Positions 1-55,793 of a stretch of 64,000 nucleotides of DNA are shown piece by piece. The DNA comes from a phage: NCBI GenBank assembly GCA_025677605.1, contig GCA_025677605.1_4110.1; one strand, 5' to 3'. The first letter of the stretch is position 1. The number at the start of each line of letters is the position of its first letter. The notes beneath the pieces were generated by a model. The model was not told the DNA's origin and searched no databases. It was given only the letters and a program-made list of their open reading frames with translations. A program made the position numbers and the translations under genes.

Positions 1-161
1 CCATGTGAGTCAACAACAATTTTTTTAGGAATTGGTGTATCTTCTTCGCATCGTTCTAATAAGATTTCCTGGGTGATTATTGGTGACGCTTGAACTGGAA
101 CCTTATTAGAACACCCAGTGATAAACATAAAAGTAATCAAGAATGTTAATATGTATTTCAT
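1..161 (-). CDS. o-spanin-like outer-membrane lipoprotein (Rz1-type); C-terminus lies beyond window start
   Basis: Minus-strand ATG at 159-161, not in ORF track because truncated; translation MKYILTFLITFMFITGCSNK... has a signal peptide and lipobox ITGC; ATGA overlap with stop of the upstream ORF. Confidence 0.5.
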   Translation of the reverse strand, partial: MKYILTFLITFMFITGCSNKVPVQASPIITQEILLERCEEDTPIPKKIVVDSH

Positions 162-532
162 TTAAATTTCTCTCTAGCTGCAAGTGAATTTTGTTTTAGA
201 TCATTCAAAAGTTTTACCCCTTCTTCATCTAAACATACATTTCTATACACTTCACGCTCAATAATAACTGGTACTTTAGTTTCTATTACCTTTGCATTAT
301 TTTGCATTATCTGTTTAGTTTCTACATAGTTTTTAGTATTTTGGCTTTCAATTTTACTTAAAGCCGCATCTACTTTCTTCTCTATTTTTAATTCAATACT
401 TTCTTTATACCCAGTATAAAAAGTATTAGCCTTCCAGCCACCAAAAGTACATGATGCCATCAGGAGAACAAACGCAATTGGTTTCCAGAACGGTATCAGT
501 ACTTTTGAAACAATAATATCTAGTACACTCAT
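158..532 (-). CDS. i-spanin-like protein (Rz-type: N-terminal membrane anchor, helical periplasmic part)
   Basis: 124 aa; hydrophobic N-terminal segment, charged helical remainder; immediately followed by overlapping lipoprotein gene, the usual two-component spanin arrangement. Confidence 0.5.
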   Translation of the reverse strand: MSVLDIIVSKVLIPFWKPIAFVLLMASCTFGGWKANTFYTGYKESIELKIEKKVDAALSKIESQNTKNYVETKQIMQNNAKVIETKVPVIIEREVYRNVCLDEEGVKLLNDLKQNSLAAREKFK

Positions 533-577
533 AATAATATCTCCTATAGATGATGATATTATTTAGAGTGCTGAAAA

Positions 578-1003
578 TTATCGTTTATCGATCATTGTTT
601 GTACATGTGCTACGAGATGTACGATTCTGGTATCACCTGATTCATACTTATCTTCGATCTCAACCTTAAATTCATCTTCAAGTTCCATGATCATTTCTAC
701 CCAGTCCAGTGAATCAAATTTGAATTTTTCTTCAATTTCTAAGGAGGTTAAATGTAAATTCATCAGTACATCTTTCTCTGATACATCACTATAACGACCA
801 GAAATGAATTTTGCAATTGCTTTTTCAACGTCAGATGGTTCACGTGTACGGTATTCTGGTTCAAGGAACCATTCACCCTTATTGATAGCTTCTAATTCTA
901 GTTTAATTTCATGCATTACTTTATAACGATCAGTACTTTTATGGATGCGACTAACTTCGCGATTCAGTACACGTAGTGCGTCTTTGATTTGTTCGTTTAG
1001 CAT
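578..1003 (-). CDS. acyl-carrier-protein-like domain protein
   Basis: C-terminal FDSLDWVEMIMELEDEFKVEIED matches the ACP phosphopantetheine-attachment motif (DSLD..VEL.M.LEEEF); likely ATG at 1003 with AAGGTG RBS (track start at 1012 is GTG). Confidence 0.55.
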   Translation of the reverse strand: MLNEQIKDALRVLNREVSRIHKSTDRYKVMHEIKLELEAINKGEWFLEPEYRTREPSDVEKAIAKFISGRYSDVSEKDVLMNLHLTSLEIEEKFKFDSLDWVEMIMELEDEFKVEIEDKYESGDTRIVHLVAHVQTMIDKR

Positions 1004-1017
1004 TTTTTTCACCTTAT

Positions 1018-1047
1018 AAAAAAAGAGAACCTCTCATGAAGTTCTCT
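1018..1047 (-). terminator. rho-independent terminator-like hairpin
   Basis: 7-bp stem agagaac/gttctct (1024-1047) followed on minus strand by U7 (plus-strand A-run 1018-1024). Confidence 0.5.
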
Positions 1048-1078
1048 TAGTTTATATCACTGTTTGTTGGTTGTCAAC

Positions 1079-3862
1079 TTATAATTCACTATAACGATTG
1101 TGTGAGTTCAGTCTGTACATTGAGTACAAACCAAGACCACGCATGATTTCACCAGCCCAAAATCCAAAGAACATCCCATTGTCTGAATCTTCTCGAACTG
1201 CTGGACTCCATGAGCCGTTCATCGGTGAACCTGGTTTTGTTATTACATAGTTATTTTGCAATTCATCAACCAATCTGTCAACCATTTCTGGTAAGCGTTC
1301 AATCTTGCACCCAGCTAAGCCACATGCACTACCACCTGCCAACCACAATCCACACATATGTCCTGTGAAATCCCATGCTGGGCCTTCAACTGTTCCATCT
1401 TTATTAAAGATTGTTGGTGAACGACCTTCATTTTCATCCTGGAATTGAATTAAAAAGTTAATCCAGTTCTCACAGAACTCAACCAATTCAACTGGTGGTT
1501 CTTCACCACGCTCTGCTAATTCTTGCCAGCAACGAGCCGCCCCAAAGAATGCACGTGGTTCATATCCACTCCATGCTTCATCACCCCAGTGTAACATTGT
1601 AAACGTATCAGGTTCACCATATTTGAGGTTGTCCCAGCGGTTCCATACATATGCCTGTGCACAAGGACCAACTGTACCGAATTGGTTTGTAAACCATTCT
1701 TGTGAATCTTTCATAAAATCCAACATATTACCCATTCTTGTATGGTCTACTGGTTCGTCTTTAAAGCAGTAAATTACTGGGTATTGGTATCCAGGATATG
1801 GTAGTCCACGCCACCCACCGTACTGATTTGCATATGGGTCAGTAATATTTGAAAATGGAATAGTACCAGGAGTGTAACGTAACGAATTTAATTCATAATC
1901 TTTAATTACACAATCCCCCAAATACGCCGAATATGCTGCTGTTCCAGAAACAGTAATAGAGAATGTCATTGTATAGTCATCGCCATTTTCGGATGTATAT
2001 AGTGGTGGAATATCATTTATACAATACCATTGGATTTTAGCAGTCCCATTGATTGGTGTTGTATCGGGTAATAGAGTGAAATCTTCCAATTCACTATATA
2101 CTGGGGCTTCTGGGTCAGGATCATCGCTGTGATTTGGCTGATACCCAGAAAGATGTAAATCCTCTGGTTTCAATTCTATTGTGGTCCATTCGCCATGTGT
2201 AGCAGGAATCATCCACCACCAACGCCATCCATTATCATCTTCGATTCTGATATTAAAATCATCATCATATGAACGATATGTAAAAGAATTAATAGGTGCT
2301 TTTTCTGAATCCAGTAGCCAGAATCCAACAACTATACCACCATCTTCACCAGTACTGATATCGCATATAGTATCAACTCTGGAACCAAGAATATCAGTAC
2401 TATATTCCATTTTATATATAGCCCCACCATAATCCACTACTGAACGACTGTCAGCCATAATATAAGAGCTACCATCATCTTTCTTCTCACGGACAAAAAC
2501 ACTTAATGGAGTTTCAGAGTGTTTAATTTCAGTACTGGTACTCAGTGGTAAACCACAACGGTATCTTATAGCATCATTATCACTTTTTGTTTTTGATAAG
2601 TCAAGTACTGGCTTAAATGTTAATGGAGAACCATCATCACATATTCCACCATAATCAACAACCAATTTCGAATCAGAATTTAGTCTGAACCATATTGCTT
2701 GCTGTTCAAGAGTACTTTGTGCACTTTGTTCCTGGCGTATTCTGATATAACCATCAACGTTGCGGGAATATGTAGCAATCGCATCACTTGGATAAAAATA
2801 ATCATATGAAATACCATCAGTAAATGGCGTAGATACTTTAGTACTTTGTCTGAAGAATTTATCAAATGCATCAATGTCACCATATGCATAACAAGTAAGT
2901 AAAGAACATTTCCATCCAAGATAATGTTTTCTTTCCTTTGTTATTTTATATAACAAGTAAGAAGCATCACTGAACCATAATTCAGCATCAGATGCGTTAT
3001 CAGCAAAGTCAAGCGTAATAGGAACATGTAATGGACGGTTGTGTTGCATCTGATTACGTGCGATGTACGTACCACCAAATTCAACAGGTTGTCTATTAGC
3101 GAAGTTTAATTTATAAACACCATTTAATGTTCTGTCTTTTACCTGTACTGTTCCTTTTTCTGACTCATAGTGTCCAGTACTGATAATATCCCCATTATAA
3201 TCTACTTTACGTCCTAAGTAATCAATTACCCAATCAACATCATATTGTTCACCAGGGTTATCCCAGTCAGTACTACCATCTGGTAATATTGCCTGTACTG
3301 ACGCGTTAATCTGATTCCATGCAAGTGCACCTTTGAATGCAAAAGTAACTTTATCAAGGAATTGACCATAATACGGCTCATCATGTGGAATACGACATTG
3401 ACCATCTATGAAATTAAATTCTACGCCTTTGAATCCACCGTGAGTAGGCCAATCATCATCTGACAAAGGCCAGTTAGCAAGTATTGGTTCTTTAGCATTC
3501 ACAATCCAGTTACATTGTAATGGACGTGGTGGATCTGGAAACTGTCTATTAGCATAAAAATATTTGTGATATGCGTCCCAATAATACTTAGCTTTATCCA
3601 AAAACATTTCATCATTAGTTGCAAGATAAGCATAGATATAACCAATGATCAAAAGACTTTGACCCTCAGTTGTCCCGTCACCATTTGGTTGACCTTCCAT
3701 TGCACTGAAATTAATAAAATGACGGTTATTTGCTAATACACCTTGATCGTTTATTACGTAATGCTGTTTTGTTGGATCTACTGTATCACCTGTATTTCTT
3801 TCTAAAAATCTATGATGACCATAAAGTAATTGTATAACGTTATCTATGTTATATTTTGTCAT
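1079..3862 (-). CDS. large hypothetical protein, possibly virion-associated (glycan-hydrolase-like or fibre-associated); function unverified
   Basis: ~927 aa ORF, Trp/Tyr/Gly-rich; probable ATG at 3862 (MTKYNIDN) overlapping stop of upstream gene; located in the fibre module. Confidence 0.45.
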   Translation of the reverse strand: MTKYNIDNVIQLLYGHHRFLERNTGDTVDPTKQHYVINDQGVLANNRHFINFSAMEGQPNGDGTTEGQSLLIIGYIYAYLATNDEMFLDKAKYYWDAYHKYFYANRQFPDPPRPLQCNWIVNAKEPILANWPLSDDDWPTHGGFKGVEFNFIDGQCRIPHDEPYYGQFLDKVTFAFKGALAWNQINASVQAILPDGSTDWDNPGEQYDVDWVIDYLGRKVDYNGDIISTGHYESEKGTVQVKDRTLNGVYKLNFANRQPVEFGGTYIARNQMQHNRPLHVPITLDFADNASDAELWFSDASYLLYKITKERKHYLGWKCSLLTCYAYGDIDAFDKFFRQSTKVSTPFTDGISYDYFYPSDAIATYSRNVDGYIRIRQEQSAQSTLEQQAIWFRLNSDSKLVVDYGGICDDGSPLTFKPVLDLSKTKSDNDAIRYRCGLPLSTSTEIKHSETPLSVFVREKKDDGSSYIMADSRSVVDYGGAIYKMEYSTDILGSRVDTICDISTGEDGGIVVGFWLLDSEKAPINSFTYRSYDDDFNIRIEDDNGWRWWWMIPATHGEWTTIELKPEDLHLSGYQPNHSDDPDPEAPVYSELEDFTLLPDTTPINGTAKIQWYCINDIPPLYTSENGDDYTMTFSITVSGTAAYSAYLGDCVIKDYELNSLRYTPGTIPFSNITDPYANQYGGWRGLPYPGYQYPVIYCFKDEPVDHTRMGNMLDFMKDSQEWFTNQFGTVGPCAQAYVWNRWDNLKYGEPDTFTMLHWGDEAWSGYEPRAFFGAARCWQELAERGEEPPVELVEFCENWINFLIQFQDENEGRSPTIFNKDGTVEGPAWDFTGHMCGLWLAGGSACGLAGCKIERLPEMVDRLVDELQNNYVITKPGSPMNGSWSPAVREDSDNGMFFGFWAGEIMRGLGLYSMYRLNSHNRYSEL

Positions 3863-3863
3863 T

Positions 3864-4493
3864 TTATACCCCTGCTCGAATAAGAGCACCGTACCATGTA
3901 ATACCACCATCATAGGTTTCTAGGGAAATTATATCTTTTTGGGATTGTTCATATGAAAGAAGAACTTGACGATTGAATGACCATTTCACATTAGAACTCC
4001 AGCTTACAAGATTTGAACCTGTGCCTTGTTCTATGATAACAGTGCAATCATATACTTGAGTTTTAGCATTAGGAAGGATATTAATTGTAGTGTTTGGTTT
4101 GTTTAGAGTTAAATTAAAAACTTTATTACCAGTACTGGTATCTATATCGTAACTATCAGCTTGTGGTAATACTGTCACAGTACTGTTGGAGCTATCATAT
4201 AATGTAACCCATTCAGTACTGTTTGTGTCATTTGTTGTGCGTGCTTGTATTTTAACACCGTTATTAGTCTCTGTCATCCCAGCCCACGCAGCAATCTGTA
4301 ACGATTGGTTGCTATCTGTTCCTAGTGTTGTAATCACTGAATTACTTAAATGATTATCTGCACCAGAAATTTCGTGTGTTCTGATAATATTAAAAGACGA
4401 TGTATCAAATGTTAATATTGGTTTTTTAAATTCAGCTTTCGAGAATTTAACAACACCAGTAACTTCCATTGTGGTGTAAAAGGAAATAGCCAT
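3864..4493 (-). CDS. hypothetical structural (fibre-like) protein
   Basis: 209 aa, Ser/Thr/Asn-rich beta-like composition typical of fibre or baseplate proteins; tightly coupled to downstream large gene. Confidence 0.45.
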   Translation of the reverse strand: MAISFYTTMEVTGVVKFSKAEFKKPILTFDTSSFNIIRTHEISGADNHLSNSVITTLGTDSNQSLQIAAWAGMTETNNGVKIQARTTNDTNSTEWVTLYDSSNSTVTVLPQADSYDIDTSTGNKVFNLTLNKPNTTINILPNAKTQVYDCTVIIEQGTGSNLVSWSSNVKWSFNRQVLLSYEQSQKDIISLETYDGGITWYGALIRAGV

Positions 4494-4577: not shown

Positions 4578-5819
4578 CTATTTCTTACCGTACCACTGCA
4601 TTTCTCGAATATCGATTAGAACTTTTGCAGCTAGTTGAATGTTTGGTTTCTTTGGTAGAACTGACTTAGGATACACCACATTGCGGATATAGTCAACCTT
4701 TTCATTGAAATAATCCATGACTTCTTCATACTTCCATTTACCGTTGCGGATATCCATTAGCATATCAGCATCAGGACGTTTAACAAGGATAATACCGCTT
4801 TGTAATGCTTCTTCGGCACTATTTAGCAGCCTGATCGTATGCATAGCATGTTTTAGATCGAAGCCGTGCTGTGATTCCATAAGAGCACGTTTAGCATTAC
4901 GATTCTCTTTCCATTTGTGATAACTTTTACGGTTCTCACTGTTCTCACTGTATTCTTTTTCATTGAATTTGACAATGAGTTCAGGTCGTACTTTCAATTC
5001 TTCAGTACTGCGTTCTTTGTTGAAATAACGTAAAGAACCATCAGCGTTAATTGTACTTTCATTAGGATTGATAATAACACCAAAGATATTTTCACCGTAA
5101 TGAATTAATTCGTACCCATTGTTATAATCCAATAAGTTGAAATCACGGTCTAGTACTTTATCAGTACTGTAATTATGTACTAAACGTACAAAATGATACT
5201 GTTTCAACGGATGAGTTGAAACTAACTGCAATGAAGTATCACGCATGTATTTTTCAAAATCTATTTTCTTAGCATTAAATGGATGTAGTTTAGAAGTATC
5301 TAAACGTTCTACCAAATAGTGTGGGAAGTTTTCATACATCCATGCTAAAGTTTCATCTACTGGAAAATCTTCTAAGATTTCATTTAGACGTTTTTCAGCA
5401 ATACGCTCTTTATCCATCCACCCGTGGTGATTGGACATACGCTTAACCTGATTATATGCATAACCGGTATAAGAGAATGCAATCTTAGAACTAAGTAATT
5501 GTTGATTGAATGTACGTAGATAATCATAGATTTCAGTACTTTCTACGATGTGTTCAGGATCAACCCATAGTGATTCAAGGATATTTGGGTTAGCCTCTGT
5601 GTATAGTCTTAAGTACTGATTTAGTTCATAGAATTTAGTATCTTCTTCTCTTGAATCAGAAACTTCTTTTACATTATAAAAAGGTGTCAGAATGAACTCT
5701 TTGTTAGCAAGAAAAATACCACGATAATCCGTATCACTTTCAGGTGTACTGGTTCCATACGCTTGTGAACCTGCTAAGTGCTTCACAATTGTTTGTTCAA
5801 GAAATTTGTTATTATTCAT
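4578..5819 (-). CDS. Pol-beta-superfamily nucleotidyltransferase domain protein
   Basis: N-terminal GSQAYGTSTPESDTDYRGIF fits the GS-x(9-13)-DxD nucleotidyltransferase signature; 413 aa. Confidence 0.55.
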   Translation of the reverse strand: MNNNKFLEQTIVKHLAGSQAYGTSTPESDTDYRGIFLANKEFILTPFYNVKEVSDSREEDTKFYELNQYLRLYTEANPNILESLWVDPEHIVESTEIYDYLRTFNQQLLSSKIAFSYTGYAYNQVKRMSNHHGWMDKERIAEKRLNEILEDFPVDETLAWMYENFPHYLVERLDTSKLHPFNAKKIDFEKYMRDTSLQLVSTHPLKQYHFVRLVHNYSTDKVLDRDFNLLDYNNGYELIHYGENIFGVIINPNESTINADGSLRYFNKERSTEELKVRPELIVKFNEKEYSENSENRKSYHKWKENRNAKRALMESQHGFDLKHAMHTIRLLNSAEEALQSGIILVKRPDADMLMDIRNGKWKYEEVMDYFNEKVDYIRNVVYPKSVLPKKPNIQLAAKVLIDIREMQWYGKK

Positions 5820-6220: not shown

Positions 6221-6724
6221 TTAACTCCTGTAATATTGTAAGTATTCGTTCTTTGCATCATCCAATTCTTTTTGTTCCTGAATTTTATTGTCGATATCTT
6301 TCACGTTAGTAATACTGTTATATAGTGCGTGAAGTACAAGAAAATCAGATACAGAAGTTGAAAAATCCTTCCACCCAACCGATATTTTAATACGCACACG
6401 TATATCACGTCCGTCCATCCAGAACATGAACCCTCGATTCCCACGTAAATCATTAATCATATACACTTTAAAACAAGAATCTCGTGTGCTGCTTTCTAGT
6501 CTTTCAAAATCTACATGAATACTGAACAAGTTTTTTGAACAGTACTTACAAAATGCATAGATAACAGGATCACATTTTGAAAGAAGATATTTGTTTTGGA
6601 TAATTTCTCTGCGATCTTTGTCTGATTTAATATTAGGTACTAATAAAGTACTTTTGTTTAAAATCAACGCAACTAAGTACTGAATAATATCATTATCTTT
6701 TACTTTATGTTTACCGAAGATCAT
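6221..6724 (-). CDS. fibre-module paralogue 3 (possible fibre chaperone or adhesin accessory)
   Basis: 167 aa; shares a K..L..K...D..R..I..K motif with the 166-aa and 186-aa neighbours. Confidence 0.5.
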   Translation of the reverse strand: MIFGKHKVKDNDIIQYLVALILNKSTLLVPNIKSDKDRREIIQNKYLLSKCDPVIYAFCKYCSKNLFSIHVDFERLESSTRDSCFKVYMINDLRGNRGFMFWMDGRDIRVRIKISVGWKDFSTSVSDFLVLHALYNSITNVKDIDNKIQEQKELDDAKNEYLQYYRS

Positions 6725-7224
6725 TAGTATAATCCTTTTAGTTTATTAAATTCATTAAGTTTATGCTGCTCGTATTCTAACTTCTTGTACTTTGTTTCAA
6801 GCTCACGAAGTGCAACGAGTAAATGAAACAAAAACATTTGTTCATGTTTAGGTAGAATATTCGCATCTCCGTTAATATAAACAAATGTATGTTTTTCATC
6901 ATAATCTTTAGATGAATATGTTACTGCATTAAAATCAACCTTAGTTTCGGTATCAAACAATTTTACACGGTTGATATGATTACCATATATGAATACTGGT
7001 TCATATAACCAACGTTCACCGTATGGTTCTTTAACTAGGTCTGTGATTAGTTTCATTAGAGAATGAGAACTTAACATTTCTTTAATTTTAAGTATAGTTC
7101 TACGATCTTCATCAGTACGGATAATTTCTTTTAAAGAATAGCTTTTCATCAGTACTGGAAGAATTAATGTACACCACTCTACATTTTCTCTTTTGTGATC
7201 ATTATTTTTCTTTTTGAAAAACAT
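6724..7224 (-). CDS. fibre-module paralogue 2
   Basis: 166 aa; TLILPVLMKSYSLKEIIRTDEDRRTILKIK aligns with TLVVRLLCKSVTLKDFVKTDNERKSLIELK of the upstream paralogue. Confidence 0.5.
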   Translation of the reverse strand: MFFKKKNNDHKRENVEWCTLILPVLMKSYSLKEIIRTDEDRRTILKIKEMLSSHSLMKLITDLVKEPYGERWLYEPVFIYGNHINRVKLFDTETKVDFNAVTYSSKDYDEKHTFVYINGDANILPKHEQMFLFHLLVALRELETKYKKLEYEQHKLNEFNKLKGLY

Positions 7225-7233
7225 AGTAACCTC

Positions 7234-7794
7234 TTAATATAAATCAGTTATTCTCTTTTGGATTTTGAATTTACGCTGTTCTTCTTCAATTTGTGATAAC
7301 TTTTCTTTAATATCTTCAGCACCAATAATCACATGGAACAGGATCATTAACTCATCGTCATCAAGCATATCATAATGAACACCGAAGTTTGAAGAAACAA
7401 CACATGATAAATCTCTTGATTGAATGATAGTTTCTTCGGTTCTGTGTTCAATCCCTGCTGGTGTATAATCGACCTTAAACATGATTGCATTTTTTAAATC
7501 ACGTAGTGTGAATTCTTCATCACCACCCCACAGTTTTTTTTGAACCATAGACCAACGATCACTGAATGGATTTTGGGTGTATTCTGCCAGTAATCCATAT
7601 AGTTTATGCTTACTTAACTTGTACTTAAGTTCGATAAGTGATTTACGTTCATTATCGGTTTTCACAAAATCTTTAAGAGTTACACTTTTGCATAGCAAAC
7701 GAACTACTAGGGTATTCTGAAAGTGCTGCTCTTTTTCTTTTAAACGTTGTAACTGTGCTGGTGACAGCGGTGGTCTAAAACGTGATTGTACCAT
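7234..7794 (-). CDS. fibre-module paralogue 1
   Basis: 186 aa; ATG at 7794 with strong AGGAGG RBS; first of three tandem paralogues downstream of the fibre genes. Confidence 0.55.
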   Translation of the reverse strand: MVQSRFRPPLSPAQLQRLKEKEQHFQNTLVVRLLCKSVTLKDFVKTDNERKSLIELKYKLSKHKLYGLLAEYTQNPFSDRWSMVQKKLWGGDEEFTLRDLKNAIMFKVDYTPAGIEHRTEETIIQSRDLSCVVSSNFGVHYDMLDDDELMILFHVIIGAEDIKEKLSQIEEEQRKFKIQKRITDLY

Positions 7795-7835
7795 AGTTTC
7801 CTCCTAGTTTTTTAGCATTATACGGATAAAAGAAA

Positions 7836-7856
7836 AGCCTGTCAATAGACAGGCTT
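7836..7856. terminator. hairpin terminator (bidirectional context)
   Basis: 8-bp stem agcctgtc/gacaggct with loop aata, flanked by A-rich and T-rich runs; just downstream of fibre gene. Confidence 0.5.
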
Positions 7857-7863
7857 AATTTTT

Positions 7864-54971: not shown

Positions 54972-55257
54972 GTAAATTGTCCAGTAAGTTGATTACATCA
55001 TCGTGTGTAAGATCAGTATCAGTACAAAGGAAGTTCATAATGAACTGCATTTGTGAATAAAGATTAGCGAGAAATTCAACTTCATCCAGACGATATGAAT
55101 AACCCATTGGAACCACTTGACATGTCCATTCACCTAGGGTTTTGTTCGCAACAACCGATACAATAGTGTTACCTTTGTATTCTACTTGGATATTACGATA
55201 TCCTGAACTTTCATTTTGTTCCCATAGTACTGGGTTAGTTTTGAAGAGTACTGTCAT
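54964..55257 (-). CDS. hypothetical protein
   Basis: 97 aa ORF. Confidence 0.45.
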   Translation of the reverse strand: MTVLFKTNPVLWEQNESSGYRNIQVEYKGNTIVSVVANKTLGEWTCQVVPMGYSYRLDEVEFLANLYSQMQFIMNFLCTDTDLTHDDVINLLDNLHV

Positions 55258-55793
55258 GGTTCTTTCCTCATGTATTTTATTACATCTTTAAAAAGTTTTA
55301 TTTTCAAGTCATTATCATCACCTGGTAGATAAGAACTGAAGCTTTCAAAATCATCACGCTTAGCAAAAGAACGCATTTCAGTTGAACTGTACTTGCTAAC
55401 GGTTCGGTCTATACCAGCTTGGATTGCTTTTATATTACGAAAATTATACAAGTTTCCATTGTATCTGTCAAGTACATTTTGAAAGTTTTCTATCCTGTCT
55501 GAACCACATATGAAAAGAACATCACTGTACTTACCATTCAATTCCTGCATAATATCAAAAAGATTATCTTCAGTACTGATGTTGTGTTGAATTCTTGGAT
55601 AGAAACCCTCAGTGTAATACATTTTCAATTCAGGTGGTAATGGATTCTTAATACAATCTTGTGTAGTACTAAGGTATATTTTTAAATCAGCATTGTATTG
55701 TTCTTTCATCGATACGGCTTTATCAAAAATTAACCCATGTCCCAAATGCACTGGATTTATACGTCCATACGTTACTATACAAGTGTCTTTCAT
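55254..55793 (-). CDS. HxGH-family nucleotidyltransferase, NMNAT-like (PPAT-like not excluded)
   Basis: TYGRINPVHLGH (T/HxGH motif) and C-terminal SKYSSTEMR (ISSTxxR-type motif). Confidence 0.6.
   Translation of the reverse strand: MKDTCIVTYGRINPVHLGHGLIFDKAVSMKEQYNADLKIYLSTTQDCIKNPLPPELKMYYTEGFYPRIQHNISTEDNLFDIMQELNGKYSDVLFICGSDRIENFQNVLDRYNGNLYNFRNIKAIQAGIDRTVSKYSSTEMRSFAKRDDFESFSSYLPGDDNDLKIKLFKDVIKYMRKEP

Follow-up and report, generated by a model that had tools for sequence, protein, structure and literature searches.

The locus and its product

The subject of this analysis is a gene at positions 578..1003 (minus strand) of a 64,000-nucleotide stretch of phage DNA (NCBI GenBank assembly GCA_025677605.1, contig GCA_025677605.1_4110.1; hereinafter, the window) that encodes a protein containing a domain similar to acyl carrier proteins (ACPs). 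All coordinates are those of the window, and all window features located below lie on the minus strand. The ACP-like gene starts with the ATG at 1003 and ends with the stop codon at 578-580; it is the counterpart of A4_505 of Escherichia phage A4 and belongs to the PHROG family phrog_18343, which its product matches over the full length (8.2e-42). The longest open reading frame (ORF) call extends to a GTG at 1012 that is located inside the Shine-Dalgarno sequence AAGGTG (1010..1015), 6 nt before the ATG, and the start at this ATG, with the protein beginning with MLN, is common to all orthologues and to the phage A4 annotation.

The product consists of 141 amino acids (16.8 kDa, net charge of about -10), lacks a signal peptide and transmembrane segments, and is a two-domain cytoplasmic protein. 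The N-terminal extension (residues 1-57; 833..1003) is near-neutral (isoelectric point, pI, of 6.7) and forms a helical hairpin (H2-19 and H25-41), and the C-terminal 84 residues (58-141; 581..832) form the ACP four-helix-bundle domain, which is acidic (pI 4.6). The turn of the hairpin carries the motif K-S-T-D-R-Y that is kept across the family: Y27 is nearly invariant, and S23 is invariant in the group to which the window protein belongs (the D-x-x-D-W clade, after the residues at its attachment site) and is replaced by T in some members outside this clade. Helix II of the bundle (residues 98-112) corresponds to the recognition helix of the Escherichia coli ACP, AcpP. The helix II motif FDSLDWVEMIMELEDEFKVEIED (residues 96-118) includes D97-S98-L99-D100, the canonical phosphopantetheine-site motif, which alignments and codons place at 704..715, with the Ser98 codon at 710-712.

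The first-pass annotation of this DNA, made from the sequence without database searches, treated the phage as T4-like. The first 6 kb of the window show 98.2% identity to Escherichia phage A4, a 355-kb Asteriusvirus; the window comes from a Rak2-like jumbo phage, and the T4-like framing has to be abandoned. The ACP-like protein is 100% identical to A4_505, which is annotated as 'hypothetical protein'. A tblastn search with the window protein finds a full-length ORF in 45 phage records, and more distant queries identify orthologues in Asteriusvirus, Alcyoneusvirus (RaK2, K64-1), Eneladusvirus (Serratia BF, Erwinia pEa_SNUABM phages and Yersinia fHe-Yen9-04), Mimasvirus (CBB, XbC2) and the Salmonella Munch/7t3 group, so that no sampled lineage of Rak2-like jumbo phages lacks the gene. 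In the representative library of 1.84 billion proteins, the family profile has 22 matches at E<=0.001, about 10 of which display the full architecture, the rest being ordinary ACPs; a scan of viral contigs for further family members yields three loci, one of them 121Q. The window protein has the complete architecture of this N-extended family, namely, a hairpin with an S/T-x-D/E-R-Y/F turn followed by an ACP domain with D-x-x-D, in a protein of about 130-142 amino acids. Many orthologues already carry the label 'acyl carrier protein' (phAPEC6, CBB, BF, fHe-Yen9-04, XbC2 and others) or 'D-alanyl carrier protein 1', so the existence of the gene in Rak2-like phages is not new. The labelled proteins (CBB_163, GAP32, Serratia BF, fHe-Yen9-04 g153, XbC2_157, pEa_SNUABM_47_157 and phAPEC6 gp313c) share the architecture, at 131-142 amino acids, and the genomic position of the window gene.

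A single record deviates from this architecture. In Escherichia phage CMSTMSU (MH494197; L021:1631-2929), a coding sequence of 432 codons places the ACP-like protein at the C-terminus, behind about 290 residues that are probably nucleotidyltransferase-derived; the protein is listed in BFVD as A0A2Z5HFQ2. This fusion is probably a frameshift artefact rather than a natural protein because the record is flagged UNVERIFIED_ORG and the adjoining genes are fragmented.

A genuine ACP fold

The ACP-like domain behind an N-terminal extension of about 60 amino acids, as well as the near-canonical attachment segment with DSLD, had been described in the first-pass annotation, and both descriptions hold: the extension comprises about 57 residues, the DSLD serine is present in this copy, and the helix II motif is identical to helix II of E. 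coli AcpP in 13 of 20 positions, including the equivalents of D35, S36, L37, D38, E41, E47, E48 and F50. A match to the Pfam PP-binding model (PF00550) had been taken there as the test of the assignment, and its outcome is divided: a match exists (E=0.0012), but its 19.5 bits just miss the gathering score of 20.8. The result is similar for a dozen NCBIfam ACP models, which match with E-values down to 1.4e-7 and all remain far below their cut-offs (for TIGR00517, 28.5 bits against 70.45). The PHROG 'acyl carrier protein' families phrog_5934 and phrog_4154 match at 3.8e-11 and 4.6e-6, respectively. A profile built from 13 orthologues retrieves 90 distinct PDB sequences, all of them ACPs (best match 2e-5, to the ACP of Bacillus subtilis), and it is on this ground that homology is upheld despite the sub-threshold scores. 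The AlphaFold2 model (pLDDT 85, pTM 0.68) consists of the helical hairpin followed by a four-helix bundle. Thus, the protein possesses the carrier-protein fold that characterizes the PP-binding superfamily and falls short of the curated sequence-score threshold; that its C-terminal half has a genuine ACP fold, with a resemblance beyond chance, is confirmed.

The attachment serine is not conserved

The serine to which phosphopantetheine would be attached varies within the clade. Among 13 close orthologues (64-99% identical), the site of Ser98 is occupied by Ser in four clusters plus the window, by Trp in eight and by Thr in one, with D97, L99, D100, W101, E103, M104, M106, L108, E109 and F112 being invariant. 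More distant members contain Asn (Turkey5), Arg, Glu, Asp (twice), Lys or Thr (RaK2), so that the census of 21 cluster representatives of the D-x-x-D-W clade reads S5, W8, T2, D2, R1, N1, E1 and K1. Position 98 is therefore hypervariable between D97 and D100, which are invariant in the entire family, and next to W101, which is nearly invariant in the clade. The orthologues from 121Q and phAPEC6, read directly, have Trp at this site, as most cultured Asteriusviruses appear to have, judging from their identity classes; phage A4, together with the window, represents the sole serine-bearing cultured Asteriusvirus type sampled.

Comparison of the serine-bearing window gene with the Trp-bearing 121Q/phAPEC6 orthologue gives a ratio of nonsynonymous to synonymous substitution rates (dN/dS) of 0.16 at dS of about 1.4, and the flanking genes of the 121Q type are the same as those of the window. 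The ACP-like gene is under purifying selection. The attachment serine is dispensable in the D-x-x-D-W clade, a point that is new here: the family-wide conserved D-S-L serine of the PP-binding superfamily is not maintained across the clade, Ser98 of this copy notwithstanding. Because the serine is not conserved while dN/dS indicates purifying selection, a phosphopantetheine-dependent carrier role is unlikely to be the function of the clade, and the family function would not depend on phosphopantetheinylation.

These observations bear directly on the possibility that the protein is a true carrier, in which Ser98 receives phosphopantetheine from host AcpS and the resulting holo-protein delivers an acyl or aminoacyl group to a modification directed by the phage or to host lipid synthesis. 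Recognition by E. coli AcpS requires D35, E41 and E47/E48 of AcpP (bioRxiv 10.1101/2025.01.28.635281), and the equivalents, D97, E103 and E109/D110, are all present in the ACP-like protein, along with the canonical D-S-L-D. Moreover, canonical L-D-S-L-D is found in all six relatives outside the clade (CBB, XbC2, pEa_SNUABM_47, fHe-Yen9-04, Munch and a metagenomic protein of the P0033 branch). Given the retention of Ser98 and the AcpS-recognition residues, it is plausible that host AcpS modifies this copy incidentally. Against a carrier function stand the Pfam score below the gathering threshold and the same-genus orthologues, 64-71% identical and, in the 121Q type, with the same flanking genes, that have Trp in place of the serine and nevertheless evolve under purifying selection; we consider this explanation unlikely.

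Partner enzymes and the dioxygenase of the sister genera

A carrier protein would be expected to have enzymes that load or use it. No fatty acid synthase (FAS), polyketide synthase, nonribosomal peptide synthetase or phosphopantetheinyl transferase is annotated in the 64-kb region of phage A4 that matches the window, and neither this annotation nor a partial scan of the window proteins reveals any loading enzyme, transferase or synthase. Two A4 products that might have been considered as partners, a 'ClpP/crotonase-like' protein and a 'protease', were rejected, neither label being backed by a Pfam match, and the adjacent genes encode a tail protein, a tail fibre protein, an RlaP-like nucleotidyltransferase, paralogous small ORFs and spanins, none of which qualifies as an ACP partner enzyme.

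A candidate partner does exist in the sister genera. In these phages, the gene immediately upstream, usually overlapping the start codon of the ACP-like gene, encodes a protein of about 187 amino acids (phrog_21561) that has no match in Pfam, NCBIfam or the PDB by sequence. Its alignment contains an invariant H-x-D...H plus an Arg, and a fold search, the only search to do so, points to an Fe(II)/2-oxoglutarate (2OG) dioxygenase. Phrog_21561 can be predicted to be an Fe(II)/2OG-dioxygenase-like partner gene that was lost in the coliphages, which is another new point of this analysis: neither the window nor any Escherichia phage in the collection has it, which again speaks against a carrier function. 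In carrier-protein-dependent Fe(II)/2OG oxygenase systems of the SyrB2 / CurA-Hal type, an adjacent oxygenase acts on a carrier-tethered substrate, an arrangement not found here. The dioxygenase gene is retained even where the serine is replaced, by Thr in RaK2 and by Asp in the P0019 contig, and therefore its link with the ACP-like protein is not obligatorily via a thioester-tethered substrate. The sister genera thus differ from the Asteriusviruses in several respects at once: the Mimasvirus, Eneladusvirus and Munch-like members combine canonical DSLD with the overlapping dioxygenase gene and a terminator after the ACP-like gene, whereas the Asteriusvirus members, including the window, have neither dioxygenase nor terminator and belong to the D-x-x-D-W clade with its variable serine site.

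With the serine not conserved, no partner annotated and the dioxygenase missing, the suggestion of the first-pass annotation that the protein feeds into host fatty-acid or polyketide machinery, or serves as a carrier for a modification pathway, finds no support. The same applies to its remark that the HxGH nucleotidyltransferase-like ORF at 55254..55793 might be a phosphopantetheine adenylyltransferase (PPAT). This ORF has only weak, sub-threshold matches to the FAD_syn, CTP_transf_like and NadD models; profile searches give no PPAT signal, and the ORF is located 54 kb from the ACP-like gene, so that the proposed link was rejected. A perfect TTGACA-17-TATAAT sequence at 55443-55471, inside the coding sequence of this ORF, might serve as an internal promoter from which downstream genes are transcribed.

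Gene neighbourhood

The genes adjoining the ACP-like gene are all on the minus strand. In the order of transcription, tail-fibre-like genes of 894, 196 and 922 codons are followed by four small ORFs (three of them paralogous, phrog_18641 / phrog_7868), the RlaP-like nucleotidyltransferase, a 209-aa tail fibre protein, a 944-aa tail protein (phrog_2871; 1079..3913), the ACP-like gene, the Rz-like i-spanin gene (phrog_1152; 158..532) and the o-spanin lipoprotein gene (lipobox ITGC; 1..161, cut by the window edge). The RlaP-like nucleotidyltransferase (413 amino acids; 4578..5819) matches PF10127 ('RNA repair pathway DNA polymerase beta family') at 2e-17. The ACP-like gene occupies the position typical of the Rak2-like family, between the RlaP-like nucleotidyltransferase block upstream and the immediately following i-/o-spanin pair.

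In all 12 lineages examined, the i-/o-spanin pair follows the gene immediately, whereas the upstream side varies: the A4, 121Q and Turkey5 lineages have the tail-fibre cassette there, TH47-type Asteriusviruses and one metagenomic contig have the nucleotidyltransferase, another contig has an unrelated 287-aa ORF, and phrog_21561 is the neighbour in three metagenomic lineages as well as in Alcyoneusvirus, Eneladusvirus, Mimasvirus and the Munch group. The 209-aa plus 944-aa cassette (1079-4493) is missing from TH47-type Asteriusviruses, and the position immediately before the ACP-like gene is a hot spot of insertion and deletion. A chaperone or minor-component role in the assembly of the adjoining tail-fibre protein could be imagined for a small acidic protein whose gene, in the A4, 121Q and Turkey5 lineages, directly follows that of a 944-aa virion tail protein. 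The cassette, however, is not beside the gene in TH47-type Asteriusviruses, the metagenomic relative or any other genus, a terminator separates the two genes, and the phAPEC6 orthologue, gp313c, is not among the 62 virion proteins identified by mass spectrometry, although the neighbouring gp314c, the orthologue of the 944-aa protein, is (PMC7247149). Such a role is highly unlikely.

The constant downstream pair raises a different possibility, that of a lysis or envelope accessory working with the spanins; one paper proposed a link on the basis of the o-spanin being a lipoprotein. The adjacency persists despite several changes of the upstream neighbour, and it has been noted for the Eneladusvirus ACP gene, the product of which was detected in virion preparations by liquid chromatography-tandem mass spectrometry (PMC7760394). 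At the spanin position downstream of the CBB orthologue, CBB_164/165 (L010:3990-4669) are annotated as 'structural protein'. Together, the Eneladusvirus and CBB observations suggest co-purifying non-virion proteins: these preparations probably contain contaminants from the membrane or the cytoplasm, or the proteins associate with particles. Given its absence from the phAPEC6 virion proteome and this reading of the Eneladusvirus report, the ACP-like protein was rejected as a virion component.

The biochemistry does not favour a spanin accessory either. Lipoproteins are acylated by Lgt and Lnt from phospholipids, not from acyl-ACP, and spanins act in the periplasm, which a protein lacking both a signal peptide and a transmembrane segment would not be expected to reach.

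Several further features of the neighbourhood deserve mention. The RlaP-like nucleotidyltransferase is found upstream in most lineages examined, heading the block that ends with the ACP-like gene; in Mimasvirus, Eneladusvirus, Alcyoneusvirus and the Munch group, the genes located between the two overlap or abut one another, which suggests one operon. According to the phage A4 annotation, an RNA ligase and a polynucleotide kinase/phosphatase are also encoded elsewhere in the window. Upstream of the nucleotidyltransferase, at 6221-7794, the three tandem paralogous ORFs (167, 166 and 186 amino acids; phrog_7868 / phrog_18641) have in common the N-terminal motif K-x-D-x-(D/E)-R-(R/K). Between the nucleotidyltransferase and the dioxygenase, RaK2 (ORF006/007; L004:3113-4028) and CBB (CBB_160/161; L010:2047-2967) encode small proteins of a second paralogous family, with the motifs G-Y-x-P-x-(W/F)-N-D-G-(D/E)-x-C and, at the C-terminus, (E/Y)-D-Y-x-C-G-Y; this family has no match in Pfam, and tblastn detects no homologue of these upstream RaK2 and CBB ORFs in the window.

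Transcription signals

Between the stop of the tail-protein gene (1079) and the start of the ACP-like gene lies a sigma70-type promoter-like site, TTGACA-17-TAAACT (1049..1077), which, by its sequence, may drive the ACP-like gene. It abuts an intrinsic-terminator hairpin with a T-run (1023..1048) that would end the tail-protein gene and overlaps the expected start region of the promoter. Transcripts from this promoter would escape the terminator because their predicted start, near 1042, is inside the 5' arm of the hairpin. The arrangement is kept in A4, phAPEC6 and Turkey5, and in the latter two phages, the matching site is a perfect TTGACA-17-TATAAT. The window contains four perfect TTGACA-N16-18-TANAAT sites, all on the coding strand, compared with 0.75 expected. 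The same design, a terminator overlapping a promoter (TTGACA-17-TAxAxT), occurs a second time in the window, at 7817-7860, before the 186-aa ORF at 7794.

Downstream, the i-spanin gene is preceded by TCTAAATA (560..567), a motif resembling T4 late promoters and possibly acting as one; its TAAATA core is found in the same position in 13 of 13 lineages compared, and TATAAATA-like motifs precede the tail-fibre genes as well as the i-spanin. In 7 of the 13 lineages, a strong intrinsic terminator follows right after the stop codon of the ACP-like gene; none is found between this gene and the i-spanin in Asteriusvirus, which is a point in favour of a spanin accessory. The terminators in 7 lineages and the separate TAAATA in all 13 imply that the ACP-like gene and the spanins are distinct transcription units, and they weaken the case for co-transcription in most lineages. 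From its signals, the ACP-like gene looks like a separate unit, driven by the host RNA polymerase and placed between two late units, an organization that we believe to be new. A separate host-polymerase unit weakens both the spanin-accessory and the tail-fibre-chaperone interpretations, and we regard the former, too, as improbable.

Promoter conservation also bears on the question of whether the gene is a decaying, functionless remnant, in Asteriusviruses, of an ancestral dioxygenase-plus-ACP module. The loss of the partner dioxygenase and of the constraint on the serine would be expected of such a remnant. The low dN/dS at substantial synonymous divergence would not, nor would the persistence of the full-length ORF in all 45 records or the conservation, in some cases invariance, of the promoter, the Shine-Dalgarno site and many residues, and there is very little to recommend this explanation.

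A possible cofactor-independent adaptor or decoy

What the D-x-x-D-W clade conserves is the ACP fold, the acidic face of helix II, a clade-specific Trp adjoining the former attachment site, and the N-terminal hairpin, including the S-x-D-R-Y turn. It is through this acidic face of helix II that all ACPs dock onto partner enzymes. Our preferred, if tentative, interpretation is that the ACP-like protein could be a phosphopantetheine-independent adaptor or decoy with an ACP fold. Under this scheme, the host RNA polymerase would transcribe the gene from its own sigma70-type promoter, apart from the flanking late tail-fibre and spanin genes, and the protein, needing no prosthetic group, would function as a module for protein-protein interaction. 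Its AcpP-like helix II (D97, D100, E103, E109/D110) would provide the docking surface for an ACP-binding partner, in the most plausible case one of the host enzymes or complexes to which AcpP normally binds, and the docked protein might then act as an apo-ACP-like decoy or modulator, with the N-terminal hairpin possibly serving as an oligomerisation or docking element.

A functional analogy comes from the host. In E. coli, ACP that lacks the prosthetic group, such as the S36T mutant, reportedly inhibits PlsB. Potent inhibition of growth by unmodified apo-ACP was reported by Keating, Carey and Cronan (1995; J Biol Chem 270:22229). Unmodifiable apo-ACP resembles the phage protein in having an ACP fold and an intact recognition helix without a prosthetic group; it differs in that it is a laboratory observation on host AcpP, whereas the phage protein is known here from its sequence. 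A stronger version of the same idea, namely that the D-x-x-D-W clade is a viral mimic of host AcpP that has given up the prosthetic group and would occupy or inhibit a host ACP-dependent hub early in infection, we consider doubtful; candidate hubs would be the phospholipid or lipid A acyltransferases, SpoT, MukBEF and IscS. We know of no ACP decoy described in a virus so far, and a literature search found no mechanistic study of phage ACP function.

Several considerations weigh against an adaptor or decoy. The idea is drawn from patterns of sequence conservation, and the conservation of helix II does not prove partner binding because its residues are also structurally important. The N-terminal S-x-D-R-Y motif is conserved as well and is left unexplained by a decoy function. 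The retention of the DSLD serine in all six relatives outside the clade implies that the ancestral protein was probably a true holo-ACP, so that Ser98 could still matter in the window protein. Finally, the promoter assignments are consensus matches, and a general sigma70 scan finds sites that are no more numerous than in shuffled sequence.

Comparison with known carrier proteins and implications

Compared with E. coli AcpP (type II FAS; PF00550, TIGR00517), the phage protein shares the helix II residues and the acidic character, in its case confined to the C-terminal domain, and differs in the N-terminal helical hairpin, the Pfam and NCBIfam scores below the cut-offs, the lack of an FAS gene context and the variability of the attachment serine among its orthologues. 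In addition, the nearly invariant Trp of the clade replaces T39, and a conserved pair of an aromatic and an acidic residue, [YF]-E, is present in the helix III region. Other phage ACPs (phrog_5934 and phrog_4154; phiCbK, PhiW-14, Achromobacter phage Motura) share the ACP fold, as indicated by Foldseek matches in BFVD, but are single-domain proteins of about 80 amino acids without the hairpin.

The original framing, a phage ACP that feeds fatty-acid or polyketide machinery, would be an ordinary finding and is already annotated. Annotation as 'acyl carrier protein' or 'D-alanyl carrier protein' implies carrier chemistry that most of the orthologues in Escherichia and Klebsiella phages cannot perform, and the conserved Fe(II)/2OG-dioxygenase partner in the related genera provides a concrete two-gene module. 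ACP ranks among the most highly connected E. coli proteins. If our interpretation is correct, a phage protein that copies the docking helix of ACP but lacks the cofactor would represent a host-takeover tool of a new kind and would, in addition, offer a natural means of probing the interactions between ACP and its clients.

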